A stretch of 63,839 nucleotides of DNA, counting the filler, from Candidatus Zhuqueibacterota bacterium (lineage in GTDB: Bacteria > BS750m-G25), in the NCBI GenBank assembly GCA_016783505.1. It is 3 parts of 3 records of this genome, joined end to end, with 100 filler letters (N's around TTAATTAATTAA, not from the genome) between each part and the next. Parts side by side here need not be neighbours in the genome. Positions count along the whole stretch, not along the records: positions 29,041 to 57,727 come from JADHWK010000029.1; 2 more parts are not named here. The stretch is one strand, 5' to 3'. Positions 28,941 through 57,827 of the stretch are shown piece by piece. The notes under the pieces were generated by a model. It was not told where the DNA came from, did not search any database, and saw only the letters and a list, made by a program, of their open reading frames with translations. The position numbers were made by a program, and so were the translations under genes. Within the stretch, counting starts at the first letter, position 1, and each line of letters starts with the position of its first letter.

Positions 28941-29040
28941 NNNNNNNNNNNNNNNNNNNNNNNNNNNNNNNNNNNNNNNNNNNNTTAATTAATTAANNNN
29001 NNNNNNNNNNNNNNNNNNNNNNNNNNNNNNNNNNNNNNNN
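28941..29040. other. Artificial contig linker
   Basis: N44-TTAATTAATTAA-N44, with stops in all six frames. Confidence 0.98.
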
Positions 29041-36350: not shown

Positions 36351-37271
36351 ATGTTTTCAAAAAGGATTCTTGTTTTTTACATTTACTCCGCTGTTGCTTG
36401 GTCTGTTGTGGCGATAAGCGGGTGTGAGAAGGGGATATCCATGGGCGAACTAGTGCCCCGCAGGATGCACGGGTGGAAGGCAGAGGGTAAGGACGAGATT
36501 TACAACCGGGACAGCATTTTCGATTACATTAACGGAGCCGGTGAGATTTATCGCGCCTATGGTTTTCGGGAGTTGTTGGTGCGCCTCTTTGTCAAGGCTG
36601 ACCAGCCGGACATTGTGGTTGAGCTGTTCGATATGGGATCAGCAGGGGACGCTTTTGGGGTCTTTACCCATGGGAGGGGGGGTGAGGGGGGAGACATCGG
36701 ACAGGGTTCAGAATACAGAGGGAGCCTATTGTGCTTCTGGAAGGGTAACTTCTTTGGGTGCGTCTTTGCCGAGCAGGAGACCGAGGCGGCAAAGGAGGCA
36801 GTACTGGATCTGGGCCGGGCCATTGCCGGGGCCATCAAGGTAATCGGGGAAAAACCGAGGCTGTTGGACTATCTACCGAAGGAGGGTTTAATGGAAAGAA
36901 GCGTCCATTACTTTCACACCTACCCTTCCCTGAACTATCATTACTACCTCGCCAGCGAAAACATTTTAAACCTTGACGAAAGCACCGAGGCGGTGTTGGC
37001 CGGATACCAGCCCGCCGAAGGCAAAAGCTATCTTCTCCTGGTGCGTTACCCTGATGGGAAGCGGGCAAAGGGGGCGTTTGAACGATTCATAGGGGCTTAT
37101 ATTCCCGAAGCAGCTCATACGGGTATTACCCAGCTCGAGAATGGTAAATGGACCGGGGCGAAGGTATATCAGGAATTTGTAATCGTGGCCTTCGATGCTC
37201 CTACCAGGAATTATGCAGAAGCTTGGCTTGAAGCGGTTAGAGAGAAGATAGCCACACAAGTCGAAGAATAG
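36351..37271 (+). CDS. DUF6599-like lipoprotein
   Basis: Lipobox ISGC; IFDYINGAGEIY..YGF, ELFDMGS..DAFGVF. Confidence 0.7.
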   Translation: MFSKRILVFYIYSAVAWSVVAISGCEKGISMGELVPRRMHGWKAEGKDEIYNRDSIFDYINGAGEIYRAYGFRELLVRLFVKADQPDIVVELFDMGSAGDAFGVFTHGRGGEGGDIGQGSEYRGSLLCFWKGNFFGCVFAEQETEAAKEAVLDLGRAIAGAIKVIGEKPRLLDYLPKEGLMERSVHYFHTYPSLNYHYYLASENILNLDESTEAVLAGYQPAEGKSYLLLVRYPDGKRAKGAFERFIGAYIPEAAHTGITQLENGKWTGAKVYQEFVIVAFDAPTRNYAEAWLEAVREKIATQVEE

Positions 37272-37489: not shown

Positions 37490-37560
37490 GGGGTGTAAAC
37501 TATTACACCAGAACCTTATCTTTAGATAGGTTTAATATAGAGGAAACGAGGAGAGTGCCC

Positions 37561-38460
37561 ATGAGAGAGTCCGTGAAGGTCATTACTCGTCGTGATTTTA
37601 TTCGGGGGACCGCCGGTGCCACTTTGGCATTGGCGATGGGCCTGGGGGCAGAAGGGCGAAAGGGGGTTAAGCCCGCCAGGAAGACAAGAGTGGTTCTGGT
37701 GCGGGATGCGGGGGCAATGGATGAGCAGGGACGCATCAACACCAGGGTGATTCAGCGGATGATGGATCAGGGGGTGGGGGCCCTGGTCGACAGGGAAGAC
37801 ACCGTCCAGGCCTGGAGGCTTCTGGTGAAACCCACCGATGTGGTGGGAATCAAAAGTAATGTTTGGGGCCCGCTTCCAACCCCCCCGGAGGTGGAGCAAG
37901 CCATCAAGGCACGGCTTATGGATGTGGGGGTGCCCGAGGGAAACATCGGTATTGACGACCGCGGGGTGCGGGGTAACCGCATCTTTAAGGACGCAACGGC
38001 ATTGATCAACGCCCGGCCCTTAAGAACTCATCATTGGTCGGGGGTGGGCGGATGCATCAAAAATTACATTATGTTCGTCCCCAGAGCCTGGGCCTACCAC
38101 GGCGACTCCTGTGCCGATTTAGGAGCCATATGGAACAAGCCCAATGTAAAAGGAAAAACGCGGTTGAATGTGCTAATCTTGCTGCGTCCCCTCTTTTATG
38201 GCATTGGTCCCCACCATTTTGACATGACATACTCCTGGTACTATAAAGGTGTTCTTTTAGGAACCGACCCGGTGGCGGTGGACGCGGTCGGTCTGCACCT
38301 TTTCCGGGCCAAGCGGCTTATCCACTTTGGCGAAGAGAAACCTTTCCGCCCGCCGCCCAAGCACATCGCTCTGGCCGATACCCGACACAAACTGGGTATC
38401 AGCAACTTAGAAGAGATTGAGTTGGTGAAGTTGGGTTGGGACGAGGACATCCTGATTTGA
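37561..38460 (+). CDS. DUF362-family protein with twin-arginine signal
   Basis: ITRRDFIRGT; VGIKSN, RTHHWSGVGGCIKN, DPVAVD. Confidence 0.82.
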   Translation: MRESVKVITRRDFIRGTAGATLALAMGLGAEGRKGVKPARKTRVVLVRDAGAMDEQGRINTRVIQRMMDQGVGALVDREDTVQAWRLLVKPTDVVGIKSNVWGPLPTPPEVEQAIKARLMDVGVPEGNIGIDDRGVRGNRIFKDATALINARPLRTHHWSGVGGCIKNYIMFVPRAWAYHGDSCADLGAIWNKPNVKGKTRLNVLILLRPLFYGIGPHHFDMTYSWYYKGVLLGTDPVAVDAVGLHLFRAKRLIHFGEEKPFRPPPKHIALADTRHKLGISNLEEIELVKLGWDEDILI

Positions 38461-45801: not shown

Positions 45802-47211
45802 ATGAAACTGAACAAAGAGAAAAAACAGTGGTTGACACCGTTCATTTTTTATCTTATTACATTGTTGTTGGCAATTAATGGATGTGGAAAAAAGGAGCCG
45901 AAAAAACAGGAGGAAGCCGGCCCAAAAATCCAATGGTTACACGACCCTAATGCCGCACTGGCGCTGGCCCAGGAAGAGTATAAACCACTGATGATTGATT
46001 TTATGGCCGAATGGTGCCCGCCATGCCGGAGAATGGAGGATTCCACTTTCAGCCATCACGACGTGATCCGGAAAGTTTCCTCTTTTATTCCCCTTAGAAT
46101 AGATGTGGATAAACAGGGGAAAATCGCCAACAAGTATAATGGCAACGCCCGGAAGTATGGTGGTGTGGGCATCCCCAACGTACTCTTCATGACCGGGGAT
46201 GAAGTGAAGCTCAAGCATGTAATCGGATACCGGGGACCGGAAGCGTTTCTTGCTGTAATGGACTCTGCACTGGCAATTTTGATTGCAGAATATTCCATTG
46301 GGGAAGAGAATAAAATATTCATCAAAACAGTTGAAGAGCTTAAGAATGTGCAGGTCTTATACCAATTACCAGACCTGAGACATCCATCACTCCGTATATA
46401 TGATAACGCTTCTTTTGATTCCGTTCTGAAGATAACAGATGCATCAGATCTAACTAAATTCTCAGCATTTAACAGATATATGCTTGAAAAATATACAAAA
46501 AAGAAATTTTTTAAAAATAAAACCTTAATAAAAAGAATTAGAGAATCAGTCATCCTAGACTCTTTGGTATTATCCCTTACAGCAATCTATAATAAGAATA
46601 GTCTTGCTTATGGACGTTTTAGGGCTGATTTAATTCTATGGAGAAAGAGTTCATGGGGATACTCACTTGTGGCAATATATCCTGAAGCGGTTGGAGGTTC
46701 CTTATATTGTACACCAAAATTTTCGTACCAATCTCAGGATACTGTGGTGGTTGATTATGTAGTATTTGATGACGGAGATATATGGGGCGGAAAAAGTTTT
46801 TTTATTGTTTCTGAGGATTCAATTCGTCCGTTTATGCATGAATCGATTGAGGGTTCTTATCCAGGCTCTGAAGGCCATAGTAATCCAGTTGATGATGCAA
46901 CCTCAAAGATCATAAAACGAAGTATCTATGATCAGAATGCTAGGGTTGTGGAAAGAAAGATATTATTTTACGCTAAGCATAAGGATGGTCGACCAGTTAT
47001 GATACCTGCTGTTGTAGACTCATTAAAACTTTTTCAAGTTCCTGATAATTATCCATACGGTTCATCACCACCATTAAAGTATTTTAAAACAGTATTTGTA
47101 GGGGGAAAATCTGTGAGAGTTGGCCCAATCAGGGGGGGAAGCATAGCGGTATTCTGGGATAATAAATGGTATTTAGTACATAGAGAGGACTTTGGTTTTT
47201 CAAAACGTTGA
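45802..47211 (+). CDS. Lipoprotein: thioredoxin-like domain fused to an unknown AT-rich C-terminal region
   Basis: Lipobox INGC; DFMAEWCPPC; GIPN. Confidence 0.75.
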   Translation: MKLNKEKKQWLTPFIFYLITLLLAINGCGKKEPKKQEEAGPKIQWLHDPNAALALAQEEYKPLMIDFMAEWCPPCRRMEDSTFSHHDVIRKVSSFIPLRIDVDKQGKIANKYNGNARKYGGVGIPNVLFMTGDEVKLKHVIGYRGPEAFLAVMDSALAILIAEYSIGEENKIFIKTVEELKNVQVLYQLPDLRHPSLRIYDNASFDSVLKITDASDLTKFSAFNRYMLEKYTKKKFFKNKTLIKRIRESVILDSLVLSLTAIYNKNSLAYGRFRADLILWRKSSWGYSLVAIYPEAVGGSLYCTPKFSYQSQDTVVVDYVVFDDGDIWGGKSFFIVSEDSIRPFMHESIEGSYPGSEGHSNPVDDATSKIIKRSIYDQNARVVERKILFYAKHKDGRPVMIPAVVDSLKLFQVPDNYPYGSSPPLKYFKTVFVGGKSVRVGPIRGGSIAVFWDNKWYLVHREDFGFSKR

Positions 47212-47423: not shown

Positions 47424-47891
47424 ATGATGGGATCGGAAACAAAAAAATCTCTCAGGCGGATAAAAAATAGTGTATATCAAAACCTGGACGTTGAGATAGC
47501 CTATCTGTTTGGGTCCGGGGCTTCCAACAGGGCGGTCCCTGAAAGTGATGTGGATGTTGCCATCCTCTTTAAAGGGGATCATAAATCCCTGGAATTGTTC
47601 AGGAATACTGCGGTTTTACAAAGAGAATTCGCCAAGGAAGTTGAACGGGATATTGATATCACCATCCTGAATTATGGTTCCCCCTTATTACGTTATGAAG
47701 TTATCCGAAACGGGATGCTTCTTTACTGCAGCGATGACCGGCTTCGGGTGGAATTTGAACTGCGGACTTATCGGGAATACGACGATTACTGTCACCAACA
47801 GGACATATATTTTGAGCGCCTCAGAAAGAAATTAGAAAAACTTAACTATGATAAACCAGCGAGTAATAAAAGAAAGGCTTATAGAAATTGA
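47424..47891 (+). CDS. MNT (MntA-like) adenylyltransferase antitoxin
   Basis: YLFGS..SDVDVAI. Confidence 0.88.
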   Translation: MMGSETKKSLRRIKNSVYQNLDVEIAYLFGSGASNRAVPESDVDVAILFKGDHKSLELFRNTAVLQREFAKEVERDIDITILNYGSPLLRYEVIRNGMLLYCSDDRLRVEFELRTYREYDDYCHQQDIYFERLRKKLEKLNYDKPASNKRKAYRN

Positions 47892-48282
47892 TGAGAATCT
47901 CAGGATTCTTGAGGGGATTCGATTGATTTCCAAAGAAGAATTTTGCCGGGAACCCAAGACATACAAGCTGGCTGAAAGATGCCTTCAACTCTGCATTGAA
48001 TGTTTAATTGATATCTGTCATTATTTAATATCACAGTCTGATTGGCAGAAGCCCGTCAATAATACGGAAGCAATTTTAAGATTAGGGGAACATGGGGTTA
48101 TTCCGATGGACTTCGCCGAGCGAATATCAGGAATGGTTAATTTTAGAAACATTCTCATCCATGCCTACTTGAAGATAGACGAGAATATCGTCTATGAGCA
48201 TCTTACAACTATAGAGGACTTTCGGGTTTTTCAAAAACACATTTTAGAATATTTAAAAAAGTTACCCGATTCTTTTAGTTAA
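47848..48282 (+). CDS. HEPN (DUF86/HepT-like) RNase toxin
   Basis: AERCLQ; FRNILIHAY (RX4HXY). Confidence 0.9.
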   Translation: MINQRVIKERLIEIDENLRILEGIRLISKEEFCREPKTYKLAERCLQLCIECLIDICHYLISQSDWQKPVNNTEAILRLGEHGVIPMDFAERISGMVNFRNILIHAYLKIDENIVYEHLTTIEDFRVFQKHILEYLKKLPDSFS

Positions 48283-48392: not shown

Positions 48393-50690
48393 ATGCGTCG
48401 CCCTATCCTCTTATCCATCGCCATTGTAGGGTTCTCTTCATTGATCGCCCAGGTGATCTTCCTCCGCCAGTTTACCGTTATCTTCTACGGCAATGAGCTT
48501 ACCCTGGGGGTCATTCTCGGAAACTGGCTTTTGTGGACGGCGGCCGGGAGCGGGCTGGCTACCCTGTTTCTGAAAAGGATCTCCTCCCCCCGCCGGCTAT
48601 TTTCCACCCTGCAGTTCCTCCTCGCCTTTATCCTGCCCGCCACCCTGTTTCTCCTGCGGGCCAACCGCCTTTTACTGGACAGATCCCTGGGAGAAATTGT
48701 GGGCCCCCTTCCCATCCTGTGGGTCTCGGCCATCACCCTTTTTCCCTACTGTCTCATAAACGGGATTCTGTTCGCCCTGGGGGTCCACATCCATGCCGCC
48801 GATACCGACGAGAAAGGACAATCGGTGGGCTGGGTTTACTTAGCTGAGGCGGCGGGGTCGGCCCTGGGGGGCGCCCTTCTGGGATTTTTCCTCATCCGGG
48901 TGCAGCCCCCCTTCCAGATCCTCTTTTTGACCTCCTGTCTTAATCTGCTGGGGGCCTTGACCCTCACTGGATTTTTCTGGCAGATAAAATCCGCCGGAAG
49001 ATGGCTCATCTTCGCCGTTTTCCTGATTCTGTTCCCGGCCCTCTCGCTGACCATCATTCCCCGGTTGGAAACCCTTTCCCAGCGGATCCTCTGGCAGGGG
49101 TATGAACTTCTGGAGACTAATGAGACCATCTACGGCAACATCGCCGTCACCCGGCTGGGGGAGAGCCGCAGCTTTTTCGAAAACGGCCTGTTGATGTTCA
49201 CCAATCCCGACCTATTCTACGCCGAAGAGTCGGTTCACTTTGCCTTACTGGAACACCCGCAGCCCCGAAGGGTGCTCCTGATCGGGGGGGGAATAGGGGG
49301 GGGACTGAAACAGGTGCTGGCCCATCCCAGCATTGAAAGGGTGGATTATGTGGAGCTCGATCCGGGCCTGATCGAATTGGGAAGGGAACATCTGCCGCCG
49401 GAAGAGACAAATGCCCTGTCCGATCCCCGGGTGGCCCTGCACCACCGTGACGGCCGGGCGTTCATCAAAGGGACCAGCCAGACCTACGACGTGGTTTTGG
49501 TCAACCTGCCCGACCCCCATACCGCCCAGTTAAATCGGTTTTATACCCTGACCTTTTTCCAATTGGTCAAAGAAAAGCTGAACCCCGGTGGAATTTTGGC
49601 CTTCAGTTTGACATCGGGCGAAAATTTCATAGGGAAAGACCTGGGGTATTTCCTGACCTGCATTCTTAATACCCTCAAACAGGTCTTCCCCGACATCGTA
49701 CTCATCCCGGGGGATACCAATTATTTTATTGCCTGCAAGAGCAAAGGGGTGCTGACTGAAGACCCCATGGTTCTGGTCCAGAGAATAAAAGAACGAGGTC
49801 TCCCCACCAAATTTGTGAGGGAGTATTACCTCCCTTACCGCATGTCCCCCGAAAGAATGAACTACCTTAAGACTAGATTGGCGGAATCTTCCAGTGAAGA
49901 GATAAATCAAGATTTCAGGCCGGTGGGCTATTTTTACGACATCGTCCTCTGGGACACCTACTTCCGAACCGGATTTAAGAATTTCTTCATGCTGATTTCA
50001 AAACTCAGTTTTGGGAGAATTGTACCTCTTCTCATCGGTCTTTTCCTGTTATATTTGGCCCTGTCTTATTTTCGCAGGAAAAAGAGGGGACTGGTCCTAC
50101 CGGGGATTCGGCTTTCCGTGGCGGTGGTGGGGTTCTCCGAGATCGCCCTGGAGGTGATCGTTATTCTGGGATTTCAGATCGTCTACGGCTATGCCTACTA
50201 CCTGTTGACCCTGATCATCGCCGGGTATATGGTGGGATTAAGCGGGGGGAGTTACCTGTGCACCCGGAAATTGGCGAAGATGGGAAGGCCCCTGCTTACC
50301 TTCAAAGCCCTGCAGGGAGCCATGGTGCTTTTGCCCCTGCTAATCATCGGCTTTCTGATGTTTAGTTCCCATCAGACGGGCATATTATCAACTATTTCTC
50401 TGGGTCTTTTCCCGGGATTGGCCATGTTGGCCGGGGGGCTGGGGGGATTCCAATTCCCATTGGCTAATCAACTCATTCAACGGGAAAATACTACCCAACG
50501 GGAAGCCGGGCAGACAGCGGGGCGGCTGTACGCCCTGGATCTGGTGGGCTCCTGTCTGGGAGCCTTTCTGGTGAGTGCCTTTCTGATTCCTATCATTGGA
50601 ATCAGTGAAACCTGTTTTTTGCTGGCCGTCTTGAATATTTTTCCCCTGATTTTGCTATGGTGGGGAACAAAAGAAACCCCCAAGGGTTGA
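48393..50690 (+). CDS. Fused MFS-like membrane / spermidine-synthase-fold protein
   Basis: Two TM bundles flanking VLLIGGGIG..VELDP..DGRAFI..NLPDP. Confidence 0.88.
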   Translation: MRRPILLSIAIVGFSSLIAQVIFLRQFTVIFYGNELTLGVILGNWLLWTAAGSGLATLFLKRISSPRRLFSTLQFLLAFILPATLFLLRANRLLLDRSLGEIVGPLPILWVSAITLFPYCLINGILFALGVHIHAADTDEKGQSVGWVYLAEAAGSALGGALLGFFLIRVQPPFQILFLTSCLNLLGALTLTGFFWQIKSAGRWLIFAVFLILFPALSLTIIPRLETLSQRILWQGYELLETNETIYGNIAVTRLGESRSFFENGLLMFTNPDLFYAEESVHFALLEHPQPRRVLLIGGGIGGGLKQVLAHPSIERVDYVELDPGLIELGREHLPPEETNALSDPRVALHHRDGRAFIKGTSQTYDVVLVNLPDPHTAQLNRFYTLTFFQLVKEKLNPGGILAFSLTSGENFIGKDLGYFLTCILNTLKQVFPDIVLIPGDTNYFIACKSKGVLTEDPMVLVQRIKERGLPTKFVREYYLPYRMSPERMNYLKTRLAESSSEEINQDFRPVGYFYDIVLWDTYFRTGFKNFFMLISKLSFGRIVPLLIGLFLLYLALSYFRRKKRGLVLPGIRLSVAVVGFSEIALEVIVILGFQIVYGYAYYLLTLIIAGYMVGLSGGSYLCTRKLAKMGRPLLTFKALQGAMVLLPLLIIGFLMFSSHQTGILSTISLGLFPGLAMLAGGLGGFQFPLANQLIQRENTTQREAGQTAGRLYALDLVGSCLGAFLVSAFLIPIIGISETCFLLAVLNIFPLILLWWGTKETPKG

Positions 50691-50708
50691 TACCCTGCGG
50701 GGGTTTTT
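50674..50708 (+). terminator. Intrinsic terminator overlapping the stop codon
   Basis: aaacccccaaggg..ccctgcgggggttttt. Confidence 0.65.
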
Positions 50709-50867
50709 ATCTTTTGGGGTTAGTCCCTGAGGGCCTTTGGCAAAAATAATCTCATGTTTTCATCTCCCGGGGCTATGCAGCGTTTAGCCCCGGGCGGATG
50801 CGTTAATGTTTGGACGTGATAACCAGAAACCAACTTTATTATAAAAAGTTGATTTCTAAATTAACAT

Positions 50868-50984
50868 CTACTCCAGTTCTTCCTCCCCAAACACCTCAGC
50901 GGTGGAGGTTTCGATCGCCGTGTCCTTATCCTTCCAGGCATCCGGGGGAAGTCCCGCCTTTGGGGGCACAGAGGTTGGATCGGA
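50868..50984 (-). pseudogene. Diverged second copy of the amrB-amrA fusion 3' end (52299-52414)
   Basis: Encodes SNLCA/KAGLPPDAWKDKDTAIETSTAEVFGEEELE* with a 1-nt insertion. Confidence 0.92.
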
Positions 50985-52160
50985 TCACGGCCCTCCCTCT
51001 TTTTCAAAATAGCTAATCATATCATAAAGGCTTTGCATGGCATAATCGTATCCCTTAGCTGCGTAATGGATGGTGTGGTTGAGCACACGGGCTAGCCATA
51101 GATGAAACAGCAGTTCTTGCCATGGTTTTTTAGCTTCAAGGAAGTTTGCCAGTAAAATCTTATAGGCTTCATACCAGGCTTCAGGGCTTATGAAACGTAC
51201 GTCGGGACGAGAGCTATTCTCACTGCAGGCTAGCATACCCTCACGGATATTGGTGGGGAACAGGTCTAATAATTCCACCTCTTCTTTAGTCCAGTTCTCT
51301 CGCAATAGGGGTATTGTGCCCTCAAGGTCAAATGCTTTTTTCTCCCTTATAGCTTTAGGGACATTGGCCACTGCATCTTTTTTATAGACCATACCAGCAG
51401 TATCTATTTTTAGCGATTGGTTTTCCTTTATGATCGAGAAACATTCTATTAGCATTGTGTAAAGGTCGGTTAGCTTACCGTAGAGCTTGTGAAGTTTACC
51501 CTCCTCTATGTAAGATTCGTAAAGCGGGACTTTGTATCTACAAAAGCCAAGCGTATAAGCAGTGTCAACAGCCCAATCGCTATAATTTAGTACCAGACTA
51601 TCGTTCGCAAGCCTCAGCGCCACTTCTCTTTTTATGGCTAGTTCGCCGCCAAGTGGCTGCTCAACATTAGCCAGTATAGTATGCGGCCAACAAGAGGCAA
51701 GCCCACATTTGGTGATGTTCCAGGTGATCATGGCATCTGTTGAGACCCGTGGAAAGAAGAACCGTACCACATCAAAGCCATCTTTGAGCTTTTTCTCTGC
51801 ACACGTAATCCAATCCTGACTAAAAGTTAGAATGTCAGCATCATAAAAATGGATCGTCTGATAGGGGGTGCGGCTAATGAAGAAATTCAATGCAGTATTC
51901 ATGCCATCACCTTTGCCGGCCCGTCGTTTGGTGCCCAGCCGAGTCTGAAGCATCAAATGCACCTTTTTGCTGTTTTCGTGTTCGATGGAAGGGATCGTTG
52001 CCTCAATCTCTTTGAAACAATCGTTCTTCTCATAACCGACACAGATTACAGCACCCACTTTAGGGTGCTTTATAACCTCCTTGATATTCTTGGTGAAGAC
52101 TTGTACGTCTTCTTTTTTGAAGGGGAAACAAACTGCGCTTTTCGGATCTTCTCGGCTCAT
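50985..52160 (-). CDS. mgs: Mannosylglycerate synthase (GT78)
   Basis: FPFK, GKGDGMNTAL, HFYDADI, PR.STDAMITW, EQPLGGEL, DW..DT, GK.H.LYG: motifs I recognise from Rhodothermus MGS. Confidence 0.88.
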   Translation of the reverse strand: MSREDPKSAVCFPFKKEDVQVFTKNIKEVIKHPKVGAVICVGYEKNDCFKEIEATIPSIEHENSKKVHLMLQTRLGTKRRAGKGDGMNTALNFFISRTPYQTIHFYDADILTFSQDWITCAEKKLKDGFDVVRFFFPRVSTDAMITWNITKCGLASCWPHTILANVEQPLGGELAIKREVALRLANDSLVLNYSDWAVDTAYTLGFCRYKVPLYESYIEEGKLHKLYGKLTDLYTMLIECFSIIKENQSLKIDTAGMVYKKDAVANVPKAIREKKAFDLEGTIPLLRENWTKEEVELLDLFPTNIREGMLACSENSSRPDVRFISPEAWYEAYKILLANFLEAKKPWQELLFHLWLARVLNHTIHYAAKGYDYAMQSLYDMISYFEKEGGP

Positions 52161-52298
52161 ATGATAAAACAGTTGCCTCTCCCTATTTATCACAGAATGT
52201 CTTTAAAGAGAGGCAACCAGGGTCATAAAATTTAGACATTAGTCAACAGTTGCTTCAATCCCGAATGTTCGGCATTGAAGCATTACAGTAGGGTAAGA

Positions 52299-53897
52299 TC
52301 ACTCTAGCTCTTCCTCTCCGAACACCTCAGCGGTGAAGGTTTCGATCACCGTATTCTCATCCTTCCAGGCATCCGGGGGAAGTCCCGCCTTGTGGGCGCA
52401 GAGGTTGGACAGGAAGGTCTCCCGATCCCACCCCGTCTCATCAGCAACCTGGGGCAAAAATACCCCCTGGTTTGGTCCCCGCTTTACGATCACCCCATGC
52501 TTGCCCATCACGATTTTAGCCACGTCCGTAACCCTCTGAGGGACCGACAGAACGGATATTTCAATCGAGATGTCCTTCAGTTCCTCCGGGCTGACCGGGG
52601 GGAAGCGGTAGTCGTTAAGGGCGGATGATTCGGCCATCTCGCGTACCGTTAAGCCGAGGGGCTTGACCGGCAGGATGTAACCGATGCAGCCCCGGAGCTG
52701 CCCGTGTTTGTGGATGGTCACAAACGCCCCCCGATCTTCCTTCAACACGCCAGAACTGACCTTAAATTCGGGCACCTTCTCCCCCTGGACCACCTTTTCG
52801 ATGGTGGTGCGGGCGATGTGGAGAAGCTCCCGTTTTTCCTCTCTGGAAAGCCCCATAGTTTCTCCCTGATTTTTTTCTTCGTCTGAGTTACCACCCCTCT
52901 CTCCTTGGCTTGGGGGGGGCTGCGGCCATTGACCGGTGAAGCAGATAGAGGCGTAGCTCACCGAGCTGGAATAATCCCCGGTGAGGTCAATGGAGGTGTA
53001 ATAGTCCAGCAGCTTCCCCTTGGCTCCCTCAGGCAGGAGCTTTAAAAGAACGGCGATGGGCATGCGGCCGCAGATGGTGATGCCGGTATTGGTTAGATAG
53101 TCCAGAAGCCCATCGAAATCTCCGGCAATAATCAGGTCAATGGCCCCCTGATCCAGCTCCCCCAGACGGGCTTTCGTTCCCACCTCGGTGTCTTCCACAA
53201 AAGGCATGTAACCGAACCGCCGGCCGTAATGGGTAAAATCCGAGCTGGCAACCACCAGGGTTCTGGAATTCAGATGTTTAGCTATTGCCCCTGCGATCTT
53301 TCCATAGTCCTCATTAGTTAAAAATCCAATAAGAACCGGCACGATCTTAAAATCACTCAGGACTTCCTGCAGGAAGGGGAGCTGAACCTCGATGGAATGT
53401 TCCGGGCCATGAGCCTGGGGGACGGTGGAAAAAAGCTCCTTCTTTAAAAGCGCTTTACAAATTTCAAGGTCAAGGGGAACTCTTCCCAGGGGGGTTTCAT
53501 AATAATCAACTGCGGGAATGGAGGCTCCCCGGAAGCTGGCGTAATGAGTGGGCCCGAGGATGATAACCCGATTGAATTCTCGCCCCCCCAACAATTTGTA
53601 ACCGTATGCTGCCGCCCGGCCCGAATAGGTGTAGCCGGCGTGGGGGGAGATCAGGGCGATGATATCCCCGGCGATGGAGGGGATCTCCACCCTCTTTAGA
53701 TAGGAGTTCACTTGGCCTTTGAGGATTACTGGATCGGAGGGATAAAAGCCCCCCGCCTGAGCGGGAGGCCTGACCCTTTCAGTTATGATGGACTGGGTCG
53801 CCGTTTCTCCCCCCCCTTTTTCCGGGGATGGTTTTTGGCCCTTGCATCCGATAAGAACGGATGCGGACAGCAAAATCATTATTATGGATCTGATCAT
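52299..53897 (-). CDS. amrB: AmmeMemoRadiSam protein B (MEMO) - protein A (AMMECR1) fusion with lipoprotein signal
   Basis: Lipobox LIGC; PHAGY, EHSIEVQLPFLQ, SSDFTHYG, TICG; GAFVT..LRGCIG, FLPQVA. Confidence 0.93.
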   Translation of the reverse strand: MIRSIIMILLSASVLIGCKGQKPSPEKGGGETATQSIITERVRPPAQAGGFYPSDPVILKGQVNSYLKRVEIPSIAGDIIALISPHAGYTYSGRAAAYGYKLLGGREFNRVIILGPTHYASFRGASIPAVDYYETPLGRVPLDLEICKALLKKELFSTVPQAHGPEHSIEVQLPFLQEVLSDFKIVPVLIGFLTNEDYGKIAGAIAKHLNSRTLVVASSDFTHYGRRFGYMPFVEDTEVGTKARLGELDQGAIDLIIAGDFDGLLDYLTNTGITICGRMPIAVLLKLLPEGAKGKLLDYYTSIDLTGDYSSSVSYASICFTGQWPQPPPSQGERGGNSDEEKNQGETMGLSREEKRELLHIARTTIEKVVQGEKVPEFKVSSGVLKEDRGAFVTIHKHGQLRGCIGYILPVKPLGLTVREMAESSALNDYRFPPVSPEELKDISIEISVLSVPQRVTDVAKIVMGKHGVIVKRGPNQGVFLPQVADETGWDRETFLSNLCAHKAGLPPDAWKDENTVIETFTAEVFGEEELE

Positions 53898-54058
53898 TTT
53901 GATCCCCAATGCTAAATTTCAGTGTAAAAGTTCACCACGGTCCCGAGCATTCGGGATCACGGAACTGCACAGAAATCCTTTGCCCATTTCTAATCTTTTC
54001 CTGTGTTATTCTGTGGTGAAATATTGCATTTCAGCAAAATTTCTTGTTGCCTCGAAAT

Positions 54059-55711
54059 TTACTCCAGTTTCAGGCTACGCAGGTAAGCTGATGAGCCCAG
54101 GGGTCGGCCGGTGGCCTTTTCTATCCGCCGGGTCCACTCCTCTGTTTCCCCCGCTTCGTACAGGTTCTTCACCAGCCACTGGCCCACGCCGACGGAGTCC
54201 ACTACCCCCTCCCCAAACTTTGCCACCATGGTTTCATGAACCTGGGCGGAGATCAACGAGGACAGGAGATAATTTTGGAAATAAACCGGATAGGTGGTTA
54301 ACAGGGTGTTGGCTGCCCAACTGGCCGGTTCGTCCTCGGAAATTTCCAAGAACAGGAATTGACGGATAAAGGCCTTATGGAGGCTGTCAAGATCGGCCCC
54401 TAAATTTCCATAGGCCTCTAGTTCAAAAGTAATAGTAGCCAATAGTGACCGGAGACCGTAGATTTTGGATTGGATTTTCGCCCTTTGGTAAACCGAGATC
54501 AAGCTATCCGGCACCTGAGTATAGGTTGTCAACCACAGGGGATCCTGGGTGTAATCAGCGATGATGTCGGCCAGTCCCTCGGAATAGCCGGGGCTAGTGT
54601 TGCCCAGCAGCCATTCGTACCCCTTGAGGATGGGCGGTTTCACCCGGGTATAGACCGCCTGGAGACCGTGCCCGTATTCGTGAAAGAGGATCCCGTAGAA
54701 GCGGTGGCCCTGCACCGGGCCGACCAAAAGCCGGTCATCTTCAGGGATGCGGACGGCCAGGTTGAGCCCTCCATAAGGGATGTCCTTGAACACCACCCTA
54801 ATGGGGAGGGTTTCAATCGGGAAGCCGATGGCGTTCAAAAAACGGGTGAGGATGGGGAGGGCCTCTTGGGTAGTGAAATAGCTGTCGGGCAAGGAGGCCG
54901 TTTTATGTAAAAGATAATCCATATCCCAGGGATGGAGGGTCTCTACTTCCCATTGCCGCTTAAGGCTGTCCAGTAAGGTTTGGTAAGGCCGGCGGGTCTT
55001 TTCCTCCAACCCGGCCATAAGCTCCTCCAACCATTTCCGATCAACCCCCTGCAGGCTTAAGCAGAGGCTGGCGTAATCGGGGAAACCCAGCGCCCGGGCC
55101 TTTTGGTTCCGCATGGCCATTAGCCTTAATAGATCCCCTTCCACCACCGATGAAAGCTGGGCGGCAACACCCCAGGCCCGGTGTCTTTTTCCCGGATCGT
55201 CCTCCAGACGCAGGATTTGGGAAATTTGGGCCCTGGATATCGCTTCACTGTTTAAACGATAACTAAAATCAGCGATTATCTTCTCCAGTTTATTTTCCAG
55301 GGAGTAGATTTCCGGGTTATTATCCACCGTCGCCCCCAGGAAGCAGCGGTGCCAGAGCTCCAGCCGGCGGGCCAGGAGGGGGTTGTCCTGGGTCCCGATG
55401 CGACCCTGCCAAGTATCCACCGTCTTTTGGTACTCTTCGTTCAAAAGGATTTCGGCGAATTCCTTTTTTACCGAATCCAAGTCCGCCGGACCCTCACCTG
55501 TGTAGATATTCCAATTGGCCTCGCCCATATGAACAGAGGCCATCTCCAACTTAAGCTCGAGACTGTCAAGCATAGTGATCAACGCTTCAACTTGGTTGAT
55601 ATCAGTCCCGAAAAAGCCCTTTTCCCTCATGGTTCCGCAGCCGAGGATCATTATAATGATAAGAATAAAGATGAAATGGCTAAAAGGAAAATAATTAATT
55701 TTTTTATACAT
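54059..55711 (-). CDS. M3/M2-like zinc oligopeptidase, lipoprotein
   Basis: Lipobox ILGC; RNQKARALGFPDY, PWD, FHEYGH..SE, YFQNY. Confidence 0.82.
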   Translation of the reverse strand: MYKKINYFPFSHFIFILIIIMILGCGTMREKGFFGTDINQVEALITMLDSLELKLEMASVHMGEANWNIYTGEGPADLDSVKKEFAEILLNEEYQKTVDTWQGRIGTQDNPLLARRLELWHRCFLGATVDNNPEIYSLENKLEKIIADFSYRLNSEAISRAQISQILRLEDDPGKRHRAWGVAAQLSSVVEGDLLRLMAMRNQKARALGFPDYASLCLSLQGVDRKWLEELMAGLEEKTRRPYQTLLDSLKRQWEVETLHPWDMDYLLHKTASLPDSYFTTQEALPILTRFLNAIGFPIETLPIRVVFKDIPYGGLNLAVRIPEDDRLLVGPVQGHRFYGILFHEYGHGLQAVYTRVKPPILKGYEWLLGNTSPGYSEGLADIIADYTQDPLWLTTYTQVPDSLISVYQRAKIQSKIYGLRSLLATITFELEAYGNLGADLDSLHKAFIRQFLFLEISEDEPASWAANTLLTTYPVYFQNYLLSSLISAQVHETMVAKFGEGVVDSVGVGQWLVKNLYEAGETEEWTRRIEKATGRPLGSSAYLRSLKLE

Positions 55712-55891
55712 CCTATAAATTCCCGGCCTTAAATTATTCTCAATTCCTCCTGCCATTTAAACGAATTTAGCCCCTTTTCGACAGAAAGGAAAATCGCCTT
55801 ACCCTTGTCCCCCCCTCTCCTCCGCCTCCCTGCTCCTTTTGCTTTAATTTGAAACATCAGGGCCATTTCTTATCTTTACCAATCTGAGGCC

Positions 55892-57043
55892 CTATTTCCA
55901 CACCCCGGGAATGACTTCCCCGCAAGAGGAACATTTTCCCCCGTTGAGCTTTACATCCAAAATGGTATACCCAATGCGGTGGATGATGGTTTCCCCGCAC
56001 GATGGACAGGTGGTGCTCTCGCCGGGGTGGCCGGGAACGTTCCCGATGTAGACATAATGCAGCCCGGCCTCCAGGGCGATGTCCCTAGTTCTCTCTAAGG
56101 TGGATACTGGGGTAGGGGGGATGTTCTTTAGCTGATACTGGGGATAGAATCGGGAGAAGTGAAGGGGCACCCCAGGGCCCAGCTCAGAGGCGATCCAGCG
56201 GCACATGGCCTTCAGATCCCCCGGCTGGTCGTTCAGGGTGGGGATGATGAGATAGACGATCTCCGTCCACATACCCATATCCTTGAGAAGTACCAACGTA
56301 TCCAGCACCGGTTTCAGTCCCCCCACCACGAATTCCCGGTAGAATTTCTCAGTGTAGGCTTTAAGATCTATCTTGACGGCGTCCAGCACCCGGCACAGCT
56401 TTTTCATGGGCTCCTTGCTGATGTAGCCGTTGGTGATCATCACTGACTTTATCCCCTGTTCCCGCCCCAACTCGGCGGTATCGTACATGTATTCGTAGAA
56501 GATCACCGGTTCGGTGTAGGTGTAGGCGATGGTGGGGCATTTTCGTTGGACGGCGAGGCGAACGATGGCTTCCGGGGGGCCGTCCAACCCCGGCTCTTGC
56601 TCGGGCCGGACCTGGGAGATCTGCCAGTTCTGACAGAATTTGCAGTTGACGTTGCAGCCCACGGTGGCGATAGAGAGCGCTTCGGTGCCCGGAAGAAAAT
56701 GAAACAGGGGTTTCTTTTCAATGGGGTCGAGGTGGAGGGAGCAGGGTCGGGAATGGACCAGCGTCCAGTAGATTCCCCCCCGGTTCTCACGGACCCCGCA
56801 GTAGCCCCGCTCCTGGTCGTCAATGACGCACTCCCGGGGGCAGAGGGTGCACCGGATCTTCCGATGGGGTAATCTTTCGTAGTAGCGTGCTTCCACCAGA
56901 AATTCTTCGGCGGCGGATTCAAAATAGGGGGGGCGGGAGGCCAAGGCCTTTCTGGCTAAAGGAAAGACCCCGGCCCCTACGGCGCAAAAGGCCGCCGAGG
57001 TCTTTAGAAACTTCCGTCGGGATATGTGACCGGGTTTCATCAT
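55892..57043 (-). CDS. amrS: AmmeMemoRadiSam radical SAM enzyme with twin-arginine signal
   Basis: ISRRKFLK..ALA; CTLCPREC, DPIEKKPLFHF, CNVNCKFC, YTYTEP, YVYIGNV. Confidence 0.95.
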   Translation of the reverse strand: MMKPGHISRRKFLKTSAAFCAVGAGVFPLARKALASRPPYFESAAEEFLVEARYYERLPHRKIRCTLCPRECVIDDQERGYCGVRENRGGIYWTLVHSRPCSLHLDPIEKKPLFHFLPGTEALSIATVGCNVNCKFCQNWQISQVRPEQEPGLDGPPEAIVRLAVQRKCPTIAYTYTEPVIFYEYMYDTAELGREQGIKSVMITNGYISKEPMKKLCRVLDAVKIDLKAYTEKFYREFVVGGLKPVLDTLVLLKDMGMWTEIVYLIIPTLNDQPGDLKAMCRWIASELGPGVPLHFSRFYPQYQLKNIPPTPVSTLERTRDIALEAGLHYVYIGNVPGHPGESTTCPSCGETIIHRIGYTILDVKLNGGKCSSCGEVIPGVWK

Positions 57044-57174
57044 TATCAACACATCACAATAAATCAAGGCTATATGGAATTGACTGAAATTCAGAGAGCT
57101 TAAAAATTATTGTATCAGTTCATTACTACATTCTATTTTCTGAATCTTTTTGCCCTTCTGAAAGTCCCCATTTG

Positions 57175-57221
57175 ACCCCCCCTTTTATTCCCCCCTTTAA
57201 TAAAGGGGGGCTAGGGGGGTT
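57175..57221. repeat. ccccctttaataaagggggg-type hairpin repeat
   Basis: Related hairpins at ~4036-4058 and ~4095-4110. Confidence 0.55.
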
Positions 57222-57362: not shown

Positions 57363-57727
57363 TTATTTAATAAGCAGGATCTTTCTGATAGATATAAATT
57401 GGTTCGCCTGGAGTCGGGCGAAGTAGACCCCGGAAGGGAGGTCCCTAGCATCCCATTGGATGCGATAGTCCCCGGGGTTCTGAACATTATTGACCAAACT
57501 AGATACCCTTTGACCCCTGAGATTGTAAATCCACAAGGTCACCTTAGCTTTTTCTGGGAGTCGGTAACGAATTATGGTTGTTGCGTTGAAGGGATTGGGG
57601 ACGTTTTGAAATAGCGTAAAAGATTTTGGGCTGAACTCATTTCTCCCTTGGTCACTAATCCCGACGACCACACAGGTGAACAGGCCATCCTCAGTTACCG
57701 CTGAGGGGTTTCCCCCGTTGAACACAA
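57363..57727 (-). CDS. T9SS-type C-terminal domain; 5' partial at contig end
   Basis: FTLFQNVPNPFNATT..SGVYF..RKILLIK. Confidence 0.85.
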
Positions 57728-57827
57728 NNNNNNNNNNNNNNNNNNNNNNNNNNNNNNNNNNNNNNNNNNNNTTAATTAATTAANNNNNNNNNNNNNNNNN
57801 NNNNNNNNNNNNNNNNNNNNNNNNNNN
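57728..57827. other. Artificial contig linker
   Basis: N44-TTAATTAATTAA-N44. Confidence 0.98.

Follow-up and report, generated by a model that had tools for sequence, protein, structure and literature searches.

A putative extracytoplasmic AmmeMemoRadiSam system with a Tat-leader AmrS and a membrane partner carrying a spermidine-synthase-fold domain

The AmmeMemoRadiSam system brings together the AmrA/AMMECR1 (TIGR04335), AmrB/Memo (TIGR04336) and AmrS (TIGR04337) families. In its canonical form it is presumed to be cytoplasmic, though the NCBIfam definition does not require this location. Radical SAM enzymes in general are regarded as confined to the cytoplasm, since that compartment is where SAM and low-potential electrons are available and where clusters are assembled; we know of no description of radical SAM chemistry outside the cytoplasm. 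Sections of Balaji and Aravind (2007; PMC2034487) predict that the canonical system modifies an RNA base. The locus described here, from a Candidatus Zhuqueibacterota bacterium, resembles the canonical system in that all domains score above their cut-offs, the motifs are intact and the genes are clustered. It differs in the export signal on each part, in the fusion of AmrB with AmrA and in the additional presence of a 14-helix membrane partner, whereas the canonical system is without leaders. From the conserved Tat and Sec/lipoprotein signals it is predicted that the presumed cytoplasmic location does not hold here, and we estimate at roughly 0.7 the probability that the locus encodes a paralogue of the AmmeMemoRadiSam system that works outside the cytoplasm. 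No published description of an exported AmmeMemoRadiSam system was found in the literature.

The window, by which we mean the whole stretch of DNA analysed (63,839 nt), consists of three contigs joined by spacers of the form N44-TTAATTAATTAA-N44 at 28941-29040 and 57728-57827, the second of which means that just 684 nt of sequence lie upstream of AmrS. Intergenic gaps within the cluster measure 105-185 nt. The features that a sequence-only reading had described for AmrS, the AmrB-AmrA fusion, a peptidase and a polytopic protein were all found where it had placed them; it had overlooked the contig joins, these gaps, and a glycosyltransferase gene between AmrBA and the membrane gene. The AmrS open reading frame spans 55892-57067 on the minus strand and translation probably starts from the ATG at 57043, which yields a protein of 383 aa (55892-57043) that begins MMKPGHISRRKFLKTSAAFCAVGAGVFPLARKALA/SRPP. 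This protein matches TIGR04337 at 382.1 bits (cut-off 220) from residue 60 onwards, and its cysteines C130/C134/C137 (CX3CX2C), as well as C65/C68/C72/C82 and C346/C349/C371/C374, are invariant in 36 aligned orthologues. Residues 1-35 (56939-57043, minus strand) form a leader of Tat consensus, with an SRRKFLK motif, a hydrophobic h-region and an AxA site (ARKALA/S), which scores above the TIGR01409 cut-off (19.2 versus 16.7). R9, R10 and F12 are invariant in all 36 aligned orthologues, an RR motif is found in 110 of 120 AmrS homologues, and the signals are kept across phyla, far beyond chance; the other ten homologues are without a signal by the criteria used, and short records explain some of these, not all. 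The leader region is coding, and together with the invariant residues and with tblastn matches that begin at about residue 7 in most of 80 loci this indicates that the leader is genuine and that the start does not lie downstream of it. We infer that AmrS is exported via Tat.

The Pfam TAT_signal profile scores the leader at 19.6, under its cut-off of 22.7, which counts against the export reading and favours an AmrS that stays in the cytoplasm, with a leader that is vestigial or serves chaperone binding or attachment to the membrane, and with AmrBA alone exported. SAM and low-potential reductants are cytoplasmic, and some cytoplasm-facing enzymes bear vestigial Tat leaders. A cytoplasmic AmrS is nevertheless highly improbable in our view, as the RR pair and the F are invariant over several phyla and basic residues are present in the c-region.

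The fusion of AmrB and AmrA (Memo-AMMECR1) is a protein of 532 aa encoded at 52299-53897 on the minus strand, 1.99 kb downstream of AmrS and beyond the peptidase gene. It scores 247.8 bits against TIGR04336 (cut-off 26) and 181.8 bits against TIGR04335 (cut-off 99), and the AMMECR1 RGCIG motif and the Memo metal-site motifs can be read intact in its sequence. The N-terminus, MIRSIIMILLSASVLIGC, contains a hydrophobic segment followed by a lipobox (SVLIGC; lipoprotein signal LIGC, Cys18), which confirms the lipobox-bearing fusion first read from the DNA. A hydrophobic N-terminus is found in 103 of 120 AmrBA homologues; 17 are without a signal by the criteria used, short records again accounting for some and not all. 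All 42 evaluable AmrB-AmrA fusions adjoining Tat-AmrS bear a signal, and a lipobox was found by regular expression in 12 of those 42. With the AmrS RR in 36/36 and these fusions in 42/42, the signals are conserved in close orthologues. In five Aminicenantes/Zixibacteria genomes the fused AmrBA carries a signal (5/5) and an unfused AmrB does not (5/5), and a leaderless second copy of AmrS is present in 5/5 genomes; the putatively exported and the canonical forms therefore coexist in the same genomes. This pairing of signal-bearing AmrBA with Tat-AmrS, and of signal-less AmrB with leaderless AmrS, is a further argument against a cytoplasmic location for the leader-bearing AmrS.

In a quick tree of AmrS, 33/33 Tat rows and 12/13 TM/SP rows fell into one 52-row group (SH-aLRT 94), a group that was defined only after this tree was seen. 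In a careful tree, with a poorly supported backbone, the Tat rows come apart into a group of 36 (support 88/81), one of 5 and others smaller still; this and the late definition of the 52-row group count against the export reading. When the 52 rows were constrained together the likelihood was 15.5 units above that of the free careful tree (p-AU 0.605). The signal-bearing AmrS do cluster on the tree, and a single clade is favoured and not rejected. Within the 52-row group are fusions in which one N-terminal helix is followed by FMN_bind and the radical SAM domain with no intervening helix (P0265, P0268), others in which a signal is followed by CBM_11 or by a beta-propeller and then the radical SAM domain, and others again with DsbD_2 and Fer4_5 modules; NapH-like fusions occur among sister forms. 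Where one N-terminal helix is followed by a radical SAM domain joined to FMN_bind, CBM_11 or a propeller, a cytoplasmic location is difficult to picture, and FMN_bind domains of such systems are extracytosolic, as stated in parts of PMC8238504. Two sequences count against the export reading. Group member P0253 has positive charges after its helix, which could mean a cytoplasm-facing anchor, while P0284, which lies outside the 52-row group, is a Memo-AMMECR1-rSAM triple fusion with a Sec-type signal, a route of export that sits uneasily with the insertion of clusters.

The polytopic SAM-fold protein that had been said to converge on the cluster is indeed present at 48393-50690 on the plus strand (765 aa), and matches PF01564 at 107.6 bits and NF037959, "fused MFS/spermidine synthase", at 73.4 bits (cut-off 40). 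Its AlphaFold2 model (pLDDT 90.1, pTM 0.91) consists of seven helices, a domain and seven further helices, the spermidine-synthase-fold domain (about residues 235-525) being inserted between two extra helices. An internal repeat (residues 5-185 and 572-749; 27% identity, E 4e-11) defines two six-helix lobes, which are MFS-like; no Pfam MFS match was found at E<=0.01, and Foldseek matches were limited to the soluble domain. Loops rich in K/R lie on the side of the termini, a bias averaged over 43 sequences, and the domain is predicted to face outward. The membrane gene was found in 38 of 55 loci having at least 6 kb downstream of AmrS, and its start overlaps the AmrS stop or is at most 25 nt away in 10 of 11 same-strand loci. 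One full-length copy is present in each of the five genomes, in every case no more than 4 kb from Tat-AmrS. On these figures the membrane protein is a core partner of the Tat-leader AmrS, although both AmrBA and the membrane gene are missing from nine of the 55 adequately flanked loci, which counts against the extracytoplasmic reading.

Residues G300, E321, D323 and D353, which belong to the nucleotide-binding site of the domain, are invariant, and its best solved relative is Thermus SpeE (1uir; 110 bits, Foldseek TM-score 0.75 on target). The acidic residue of GGG(D/E)G, which we take to bind the dcSAM amine in spermidine synthase, is replaced by I in the window (GGGIGG) and most commonly by V (19), A (9), L (7) or I (3) in 43 relatives, while the first Asp of D-x-x-D-P, presumably catalytic, is Asn in the window (NLPDP) and in 33 of the 43, six having D. 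We reject a spermidine synthase as not credible: the acidic residue specific for dcSAM is lost, as is the first catalytic Asp, and the corresponding equivalogs score far under their cut-offs (NF002956, 205.3 versus 472; NF002010, 129.6 versus 260; TIGR00417, 114.7 versus 249.55). The PF01564 score and the likeness to 1uir would suit neighbours without a common function, the membrane protein being an ordinary membrane-bound polyamine aminopropyltransferase or a transporter. We regard this as improbable in the extreme given the equivalog scores, the lost residues, the one-to-one linkage to Tat-AmrS in 5/5 genomes, and a docking score that beats its controls.

That score, for a predicted complex of AmrS with the SAM-fold domain, was 0.75 (runs 0.77, 0.75 and 0.75), while the best of three controls reached 0.01. 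Of 80 solved complexes 58 attained this docking mark, as did 2 of 110 mismatched pairs; these counts are rough, self-made alignments having been used here. The runs have at least 76% of their contacts in common, with a partner pLDDT of at least 90. It is predicted that the active-site face of AmrS docks on the domain, which, being itself predicted to lie outside, again disfavours a cytoplasmic AmrS. The AmrS interface residues of the model are conserved in cytoplasmic AmrS too; this lack of a clade-specific signal counts against the proposal. In the model the conserved domain loop 409-417, in which E410 is invariant and 412-413 almost so, is placed against Y176 and residues 101-104 of AmrS, next to the cluster motif, and the SAM-pocket residues 298-303, 321-323, 353 and 371-375 are absent from the interface. 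This arrangement would also fit an extracytoplasmic system in which the membrane protein does not supply SAM. It would instead present or flip a membrane-borne substrate (e.g. an isoprenoid lipid), or serve as the protein substrate of AmrS, much as pyruvate formate-lyase does for its activase, and AmrS would bring one SAM through Tat as a regenerated cofactor. Among characterised enzymes AmrS is nearest to the glycyl-radical activases, whose substrates are proteins (TIGR02493, 51.2 bits), and Memo contexts were reportedly linked to isoprenoid modification by Burroughs et al. in 2019. However, the invariant G300, E321, D323 and D353 suggest that the domain binds an adenosyl ligand and is more than a scaffold, and no lipid-related gene is conserved across the 80 loci, and we consider a membrane protein without a role in SAM supply rather unlikely.

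The lipoprotein zinc peptidase (54059-55711, minus strand; M2/M3/M32-like) lies between AmrS and AmrBA as claimed, with a lipobox (IIMILGC) and an HEYGH motif. It matches Pfam M3 (PF01432) at 36.1 bits (cut-off 27) over just 84 of 457 profile positions and M32 at 24.3 bits, under the cut-off of 25.1; no solved relative was found at E<=0.1, and its Atlas features gave 0.97-0.98 against M2/M3 clusters. The peptidase gene was found in 0/80 related loci, and a metagenome scan gave one near-identical contig only, which places it outside the conserved system. The glycosyltransferase gene (50985-52193, minus strand), likewise found in 0/80 related loci, encodes a mannosylglycerate-synthase-like protein of 402 aa without a signal, with GT and C-terminal domains of GT78 type (PF21969, 296.9 bits; PF21967, 101 bits). 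A 96-nt repeat of the AmrA 3' end (repeat family D1) flanks it; the remnant copy, at 50870-50965 on the minus strand, corresponds to the final ~31 codons of AmrBA plus its stop codon, is 89% identical to 52301-52396 and has a 1-nt indel at its 5' end. The duplication appears to mark the insertion of the glycosyltransferase gene and, as far as the sequences indicate, both this gene and that of the peptidase are later, lineage-specific inserts.

A Tat-signal DUF362 protein is encoded at 37555-38460 (plus strand; PF04015, 33.5 bits; TIGR01409, 20.4), adjoining the gene of a DUF6599 lipoprotein at 36351-37271 (plus strand; PF20244, 110.9 bits). It has at most 30-32% identity to AmrS-adjacent DUF362 proteins and sits on a long branch, and it is a distant paralogue of the DUF362 protein preceding AmrS in relatives; its link to the system is uncertain. 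DUF6599 homologues were found by tblastn near DUF362-AmrS in 11/80 loci, and NapH-like (PF12801), FMN_bind and DsbD-type modules are fused to clade AmrS or lie beside AmrS in 21/80 loci. The expected co-occurrence of the fused MFS/spermidine-synthase protein, DUF362 and DUF6599 with Tat-AmrS is borne out, with the correction that the DUF362 gene of the window does not adjoin AmrS. An adjacent DUF362 gene and any NapH-like gene are absent at the window AmrS, which together with the 105-185 nt gaps counts against the proposed system.

Read from the domain identities, signal conservation, gene linkage and fusions, AmrS would acquire its iron-sulfur clusters in the cytoplasm and then be exported folded by Tat, while the Memo-AMMECR1 fusion would be exported by Sec and anchored by a lipid. 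The membrane protein, with its two MFS-like six-helix lobes and two extra helices, would display a SAM-type nucleotide-binding domain outside, on which the active-site face of AmrS would dock, and would most likely deliver SAM or a membrane-borne substrate to AmrS. In relatives, the DUF362 protein together with NapH-like, FMN_bind or DsbD_2 modules, fused or encoded nearby, would carry electrons across the membrane, and the substrate would be an envelope or external molecule. It counts against the proposal that we know of no SAM source in the periplasm and of no SAM transporter in this membrane-protein family. A more tentative and rather doubtful possibility is periplasmic radical SAM chemistry fed by a SAM conduit, in which the MFS-like lobes would pass SAM to the outward domain docked on AmrS, NapH-like/FMN/DsbD-type wires would give electrons, and the Memo-AMMECR1 lipoprotein would complete an oxygen-independent change of an envelope lipid or of an external, perhaps aromatic or glycan-bound, substrate.

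If the extracytoplasmic reading is true, a large multi-phylum clade, with every part targeted outside and with its own membrane partner and electron wires, would overturn the cytoplasm-only assumption and raise the question of how SAM crosses the membrane. The long unexplained Memo/AMMECR1/radical-SAM trio would gain a testable setting, with exported components and a defined binding partner, and the hunt for a substrate could concentrate on the cell envelope, or on the surroundings, of anaerobic sediment and peat bacteria. Were the SAM conduit also real, AmrS would be the first radical SAM enzyme to act outside the cytoplasm, and its membrane partner the first device for SAM export.

Among known systems, the membrane partner is comparable to SpeE and membrane-fused aminopropyltransferases (PF01564; 1uir), with which its domain has the whole fold in common, including the N-terminal beta-hairpin part, and the nucleotide-binding Glu/Asp are kept. 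Unlike in SpeE, two extra helices place the domain between two MFS-like lobes, its predicted orientation is outward, and the dcSAM acidic residue and the first Asp are lost. The PflA-family activases dock a protein partner on their active-site face, as the AmrS model suggests for AmrS, but they are cytoplasmic and without the N-terminal and C-terminal four-cysteine motifs of AmrS, which falls far under the family cut-off of 231.75 for TIGR02493. The relatives of the locus resemble the NapGH-, NosR- and ApbE-flavinylated extracytosolic electron-transfer systems, as described in parts of Meheust et al. (2021; PMC8238504), in having NapH-like, FMN_bind and DsbD-type modules, none of which occurs within the window; the main text of that paper contains no relevant mention of radical SAM, Memo, AMMECR1, DUF362 or spermidine synthase. 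The transmembrane acyltransferases AT3/TmAT, as presented in parts of PMC12423673, are unrelated in fold and cofactor to the membrane protein described here, for which such a pore is hypothetical, but they offer a conceptual precedent in which acyl-CoA reaches an extracytosolic acceptor through a membrane protein.

The AmrS cluster occupies the end of the second of the three contigs in the window. AmrS itself (55892-57043, minus strand) matches the radical SAM family TIGR04337 with 382.1 bits, the match starting only at residue 60. On the same strand it is followed by an M2/M3/M32-like lipoprotein peptidase (54059-55711) with an HEYGH motif and an IMILGC lipobox, a lipobox-bearing AmrB-AmrA (Memo-AMMECR1) fusion, here called AmrBA (52299-53897), and a mannosylglycerate-synthase-like glycosyltransferase without a signal (50985-52193). 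Convergent with these genes is that of a polytopic 765-aa protein with a spermidine-synthase-fold domain, referred to below as the membrane protein (48393-50690, plus strand). The sequence-only reading had proposed an exported AmmeMemoRadiSam system, and its four elements, namely the Tat leader of AmrS, the AmrBA lipobox, the lipoprotein peptidase between the two and the convergent SAM-fold protein, were all confirmed in the sequence. Its description omitted the glycosyltransferase gene, as well as the contig joint 684 nt upstream of AmrS. The joints in the window (spacers N44-TTAATTAATTAA-N44 at 28941-29040 and 57728-57827) are artificial, so genes across a spacer are not genomic neighbours.

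The leader of AmrS is MMKPGHISRRKFLKTSAAFCAVGAGVFPLARKALA, the next residue being S, and it contains a consensus twin-arginine motif, a weakly hydrophobic stretch, basic residues and an AxA site. It passes the NCBIfam Tat model (19.2 against a cut-off of 16.7) and falls below the Pfam Tat model (19.6 against 22.7). An RR motif is present within the first 40 residues of 110 of the 120 best AmrS homologues, the other ten including shorter records and one protein whose motif lies farther into the sequence. Across 36 aligned orthologues, taken from loci of Acidobacteriota, Calditrichota, Latescibacterota, Zixibacteria, Aminicenantes and others, R9, R10 and F12 never vary, and neither do three cysteine sets, which suggests that AmrS is a multi-cluster protein of the kind needing Tat. 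AmrBA begins with MIRSIIMILLSASVLIGC in the window, and a strongly hydrophobic N-terminus occurs in 103 of its 120 best homologues. Where AmrBA fusions adjoin Tat-AmrS, all 42 that were evaluable have a hydrophobic N-terminus, 12 of them with a lipobox; nine more such ORFs could not be evaluated and are outside this count. Signals also co-vary with partners, being present on fused AmrBA (5/5) and absent from unfused AmrB (0/5) in five Aminicenantes and Zixibacteria genomes. A leaderless second AmrS copy was found in 5/5 genomes having Tat-AmrS, so that canonical and exported sets exist side by side; none of six loci of this second copy had AmrA, AmrB or the membrane gene within about 4 kb.

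The comparison of loci covered 80, each from a genome that represents its species. As a rule the genes run DUF362, AmrS, AmrBA and then the membrane protein gene on the opposite strand, and the window has this order except for two inserts. Co-occurrence with the fused MFS/spermidine synthase, DUF362 and DUF6599, which had been put forward as a check, was borne out. In the 55 loci that extend 6 kb or more beyond AmrS on its downstream side, the membrane protein was found in 38, AmrBA in 37, both in 29 and neither in 9; a DUF362 gene lies immediately upstream of AmrS in 75/80 loci, and DUF6599 is present in 11/80. A NapH-like polyferredoxin occurs in 21/80. In Aminicenantes and Zixibacteria the membrane gene comes directly after AmrS, and in 10 of 11 such loci the start of its longest ORF overlaps the AmrS stop or is no more than 25 nt away. 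In each of five genomes (5/5) the membrane protein has a single full-length orthologue, always encoded less than 4 kb from Tat-AmrS.

A Tat leader was detected by a strict test in 58 of 83 ORFs of the AmrS-adjacent DUF362 family. The AmrS-adjacent DUF362 of Aminicenantes and Zixibacteria has no signal (loci L008, L045, L046, L050, L054 and L056, and further L059, L066, L068, L073 and L076), and since these copies lack a signal of their own they may be co-exported with AmrS as Tat hitchhikers. The window has a Tat-DUF362 (37555-38460) and a lipoprotein DUF6599 (36351-37271) 17 kb away from the AmrS cluster. This DUF362 was considered as the orthologue of the AmrS-adjacent one and rejected; with an identity of at most 30-32% and a long branch, it is a distant paralogue. 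A further DUF362 paralogue, whose leader or anchor is of the RREALxxLLRLGG type, is often found beyond the membrane protein gene (for example L009 9470-10453, L024 14920-15903 and L060 15069-16055), and DUF362 genes thus bracket the cluster.

The peculiarities of the window are the AmrBA lipobox, the two inserted genes, one of them with an insertion scar, and the lack of an adjacent DUF362 gene. Neither the peptidase nor the glycosyltransferase was found in any of the 80 related loci; the peptidase between AmrS and AmrBA is therefore a feature of the window that does not extend to the compared loci. A metagenome scan with the peptidase gave five loci, one being a 98% identical 4.2-kb contig and the others four weak partial matches, and these add no context for it. 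A direct repeat of 96 nt (50870-50965 and 52301-52396, 89% identical) brackets the glycosyltransferase gene, and its copy at 50870-50965 is what remains of a duplicate of the last 31 codons and stop codon of AmrBA. The glycosyltransferase gene is therefore, to judge by its scar, an insertion into the ancestral AmrBA/membrane-gene junction.

Three intergenic stretches of about 40 nt (52248-52287, 53934-53973 and 57178-57218) are break points of Logan contigs, show depth spikes of up to 896 versus about 74, and are matched with two mismatches by contigs from elsewhere, suggesting a multi-copy intergenic repeat that flanks the cluster genes. No Logan piece listed covers the stretch from end to end, and none of the runs listed as containing it is an RNA run; the two that match best may be the samples from which the sequence came. 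Promoter-like sites number 7 (6.5 expected) and terminator-like sites 6 (9.3 expected), and such predictions are thus uninformative on transcription units. Directly upstream of AmrS, at the position taken by DUF362 in relatives, is the C-terminal sorting domain of T9SS type A (57363-57725, minus strand; TIGR04183, 42.6 bits, cut-off 23) of a protein truncated by the contig end. On the other side, 1.2 kb from the membrane protein gene, is a 469-aa lipoprotein (45802-47211, plus strand) that begins with a thioredoxin-like domain (CPPC) and continues in a long C-terminal part of uncharacterised kind; the 80 loci yielded no homologue of it. Two small overlapping genes at 47424-48282 (plus strand) look, from their translations by eye, like a nucleotidyltransferase/HEPN-type toxin-antitoxin pair.

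A tree had been put forward as a check on whether signal-bearing AmrS forms a clade. Trees were built from 144 of the 150 best cluster representatives and the window's AmrS, seven fragments being dropped. A quick tree placed all 33 Tat rows and 12 of 13 other rows with an N-terminal helix or signal in one 52-row group (SH-aLRT 94). A careful tree, in which the backbone is unresolved, did not recover one signal-bearing clade at 80% support or more, and the Tat rows were split among one group of 36 (support 88/81), one of 5 and some smaller ones. Holding the 52 rows together, a group defined only after the quick tree was seen, gave a log-likelihood 15.5 units above the free tree and was not rejected (p-AU 0.605). 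A single origin of signal-bearing AmrS is therefore favoured, though not proven.

Fusions within the 52-row group place further modules next to the radical SAM domain. The AmrS-type proteins P0265 and P0268 have a single N-terminal helix followed by FMN_bind and radical SAM domains that no helix separates; in others a signal and then CBM_11 or a beta-propeller precede the radical SAM domain, or DsbD_2 or FMN_bind plus NapH-like Fer4_5 modules do so. Meheust et al. 2021 (PMC8238504) place the FMN_bind domains of NapH-like systems outside the cytosol. Two AmrS-type proteins cut against the export reading. P0253, a triple fusion, has positive charges after its N-terminal helix, and P0284, outside the 52-row group, is a Memo-AMMECR1-rSAM triple fusion that starts with a Sec-type signal; simple Tat export would account for neither protein. 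The AmrS-type enzyme P0304, noted together with a five-row sister group in the tree, is interrupted by an intein with a LAGLIDADG endonuclease domain (PF14890, PF14528).

An AlphaFold2 model of the membrane protein from 43 sequences (pLDDT 90.1, pTM 0.91) has a domain of about 290 residues set between two runs of seven helices each. Residues 5-185 and 572-749 are 27% identical (E 4e-11), an internal repeat which indicates two homologous six-helix lobes, with helices 7 and 8 as extras flanking the inserted domain. Parallel lobes join on the side of their ends, so the domain between the two extra helices would be on the opposite face. Family means of 3.1-3.8 K/R per loop at 59-73, 193-207, 559-576 and 618-642, against 0-0.7 in the opposite short loops, mark the side of the termini as probably cytoplasmic, and from this bias and the lobe geometry the domain is predicted to be outward-facing. 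The domain shows the complete fold of spermidine synthase (TM-score 0.75 on 1uir), with invariant nucleotide-binding residues. It has lost the acidic position in GGG(D/E)G as well as the leading Asp in D-x-x-D-P, and the protein scores far below every aminopropyltransferase equivalog cut-off; for these reasons it was not filed as a spermidine synthase. A Foldseek search with the 765-aa model gave only aminopropyltransferases among the matches shown and no informative match for the membrane part, and a sequence search of solved structures gave only stand-alone aminopropyltransferases.

We also predicted a complex of mature AmrS (residues 46-383) with the membrane-protein domain (residues 232-530). 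The score was 0.75 (runs 0.77, 0.75 and 0.75) versus 0.01 for the best of three controls, with at least 76% of contacts common to the runs and partner pLDDT of at least 90. The benchmark for this score, whose mark is met by 58 of 80 solved complexes and 2 of 110 mismatched pairs, holds only roughly, since our own alignments were used. The modelled interface joins a conserved AmrS face round the cluster motif (residues 101-110, 138-142, Y176 and 300-315) to a conserved loop of the domain (409-417). Identity to the window at interface positions is 0.52 for exported and 0.43 for cytoplasmic AmrS, and at other AmrS positions 0.45 and 0.42; the same residues are conserved in cytoplasmic AmrS, so there is no clade-specific conservation at the AmrS interface. 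The model supports, but does not show, binding of AmrS to the domain.

Alongside the domain identities, signal conservation, gene linkage and fusions, which are observed, we give a probability of about 0.7 to an extracytoplasmic system with a 14-helix membrane partner. In such a system Tat would export AmrS in its folded state, perhaps along with a DUF362 partner, AmrBA would leave by Sec and be lipidated, and AmrS would dock on the outward-facing domain of the membrane protein, with electrons supplied via NapH-like, FMN or DsbD-type modules where these are present. In our preferred reading SAM or a membrane-borne substrate would become accessible to the outward-facing domain through the MFS-like lobes; that the membrane protein is specifically a SAM conduit seems to us rather doubtful. 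Alternatively, AmrS could carry one SAM molecule through Tat and regenerate it, or the domain could itself be the substrate of AmrS.

Judged from sequence, the variant is real and conserved, and its localisation and mechanism are predicted. In our literature searches neither an exported radical SAM enzyme nor the membrane partner seen here was found described. Further contexts of the AMMECR1/Memo/radical SAM association were reportedly covered by Burroughs et al. in 2019. The association of AMMECR1, dioxygenase-like and radical SAM proteins has been known since Balaji and Aravind 2007 (PMC2034487), whose proposal for its role was RNA base modification. Set beside that association, the cluster apparently represents an extracytoplasmic form, conserved and undescribed, of a system that is known but has no explanation.
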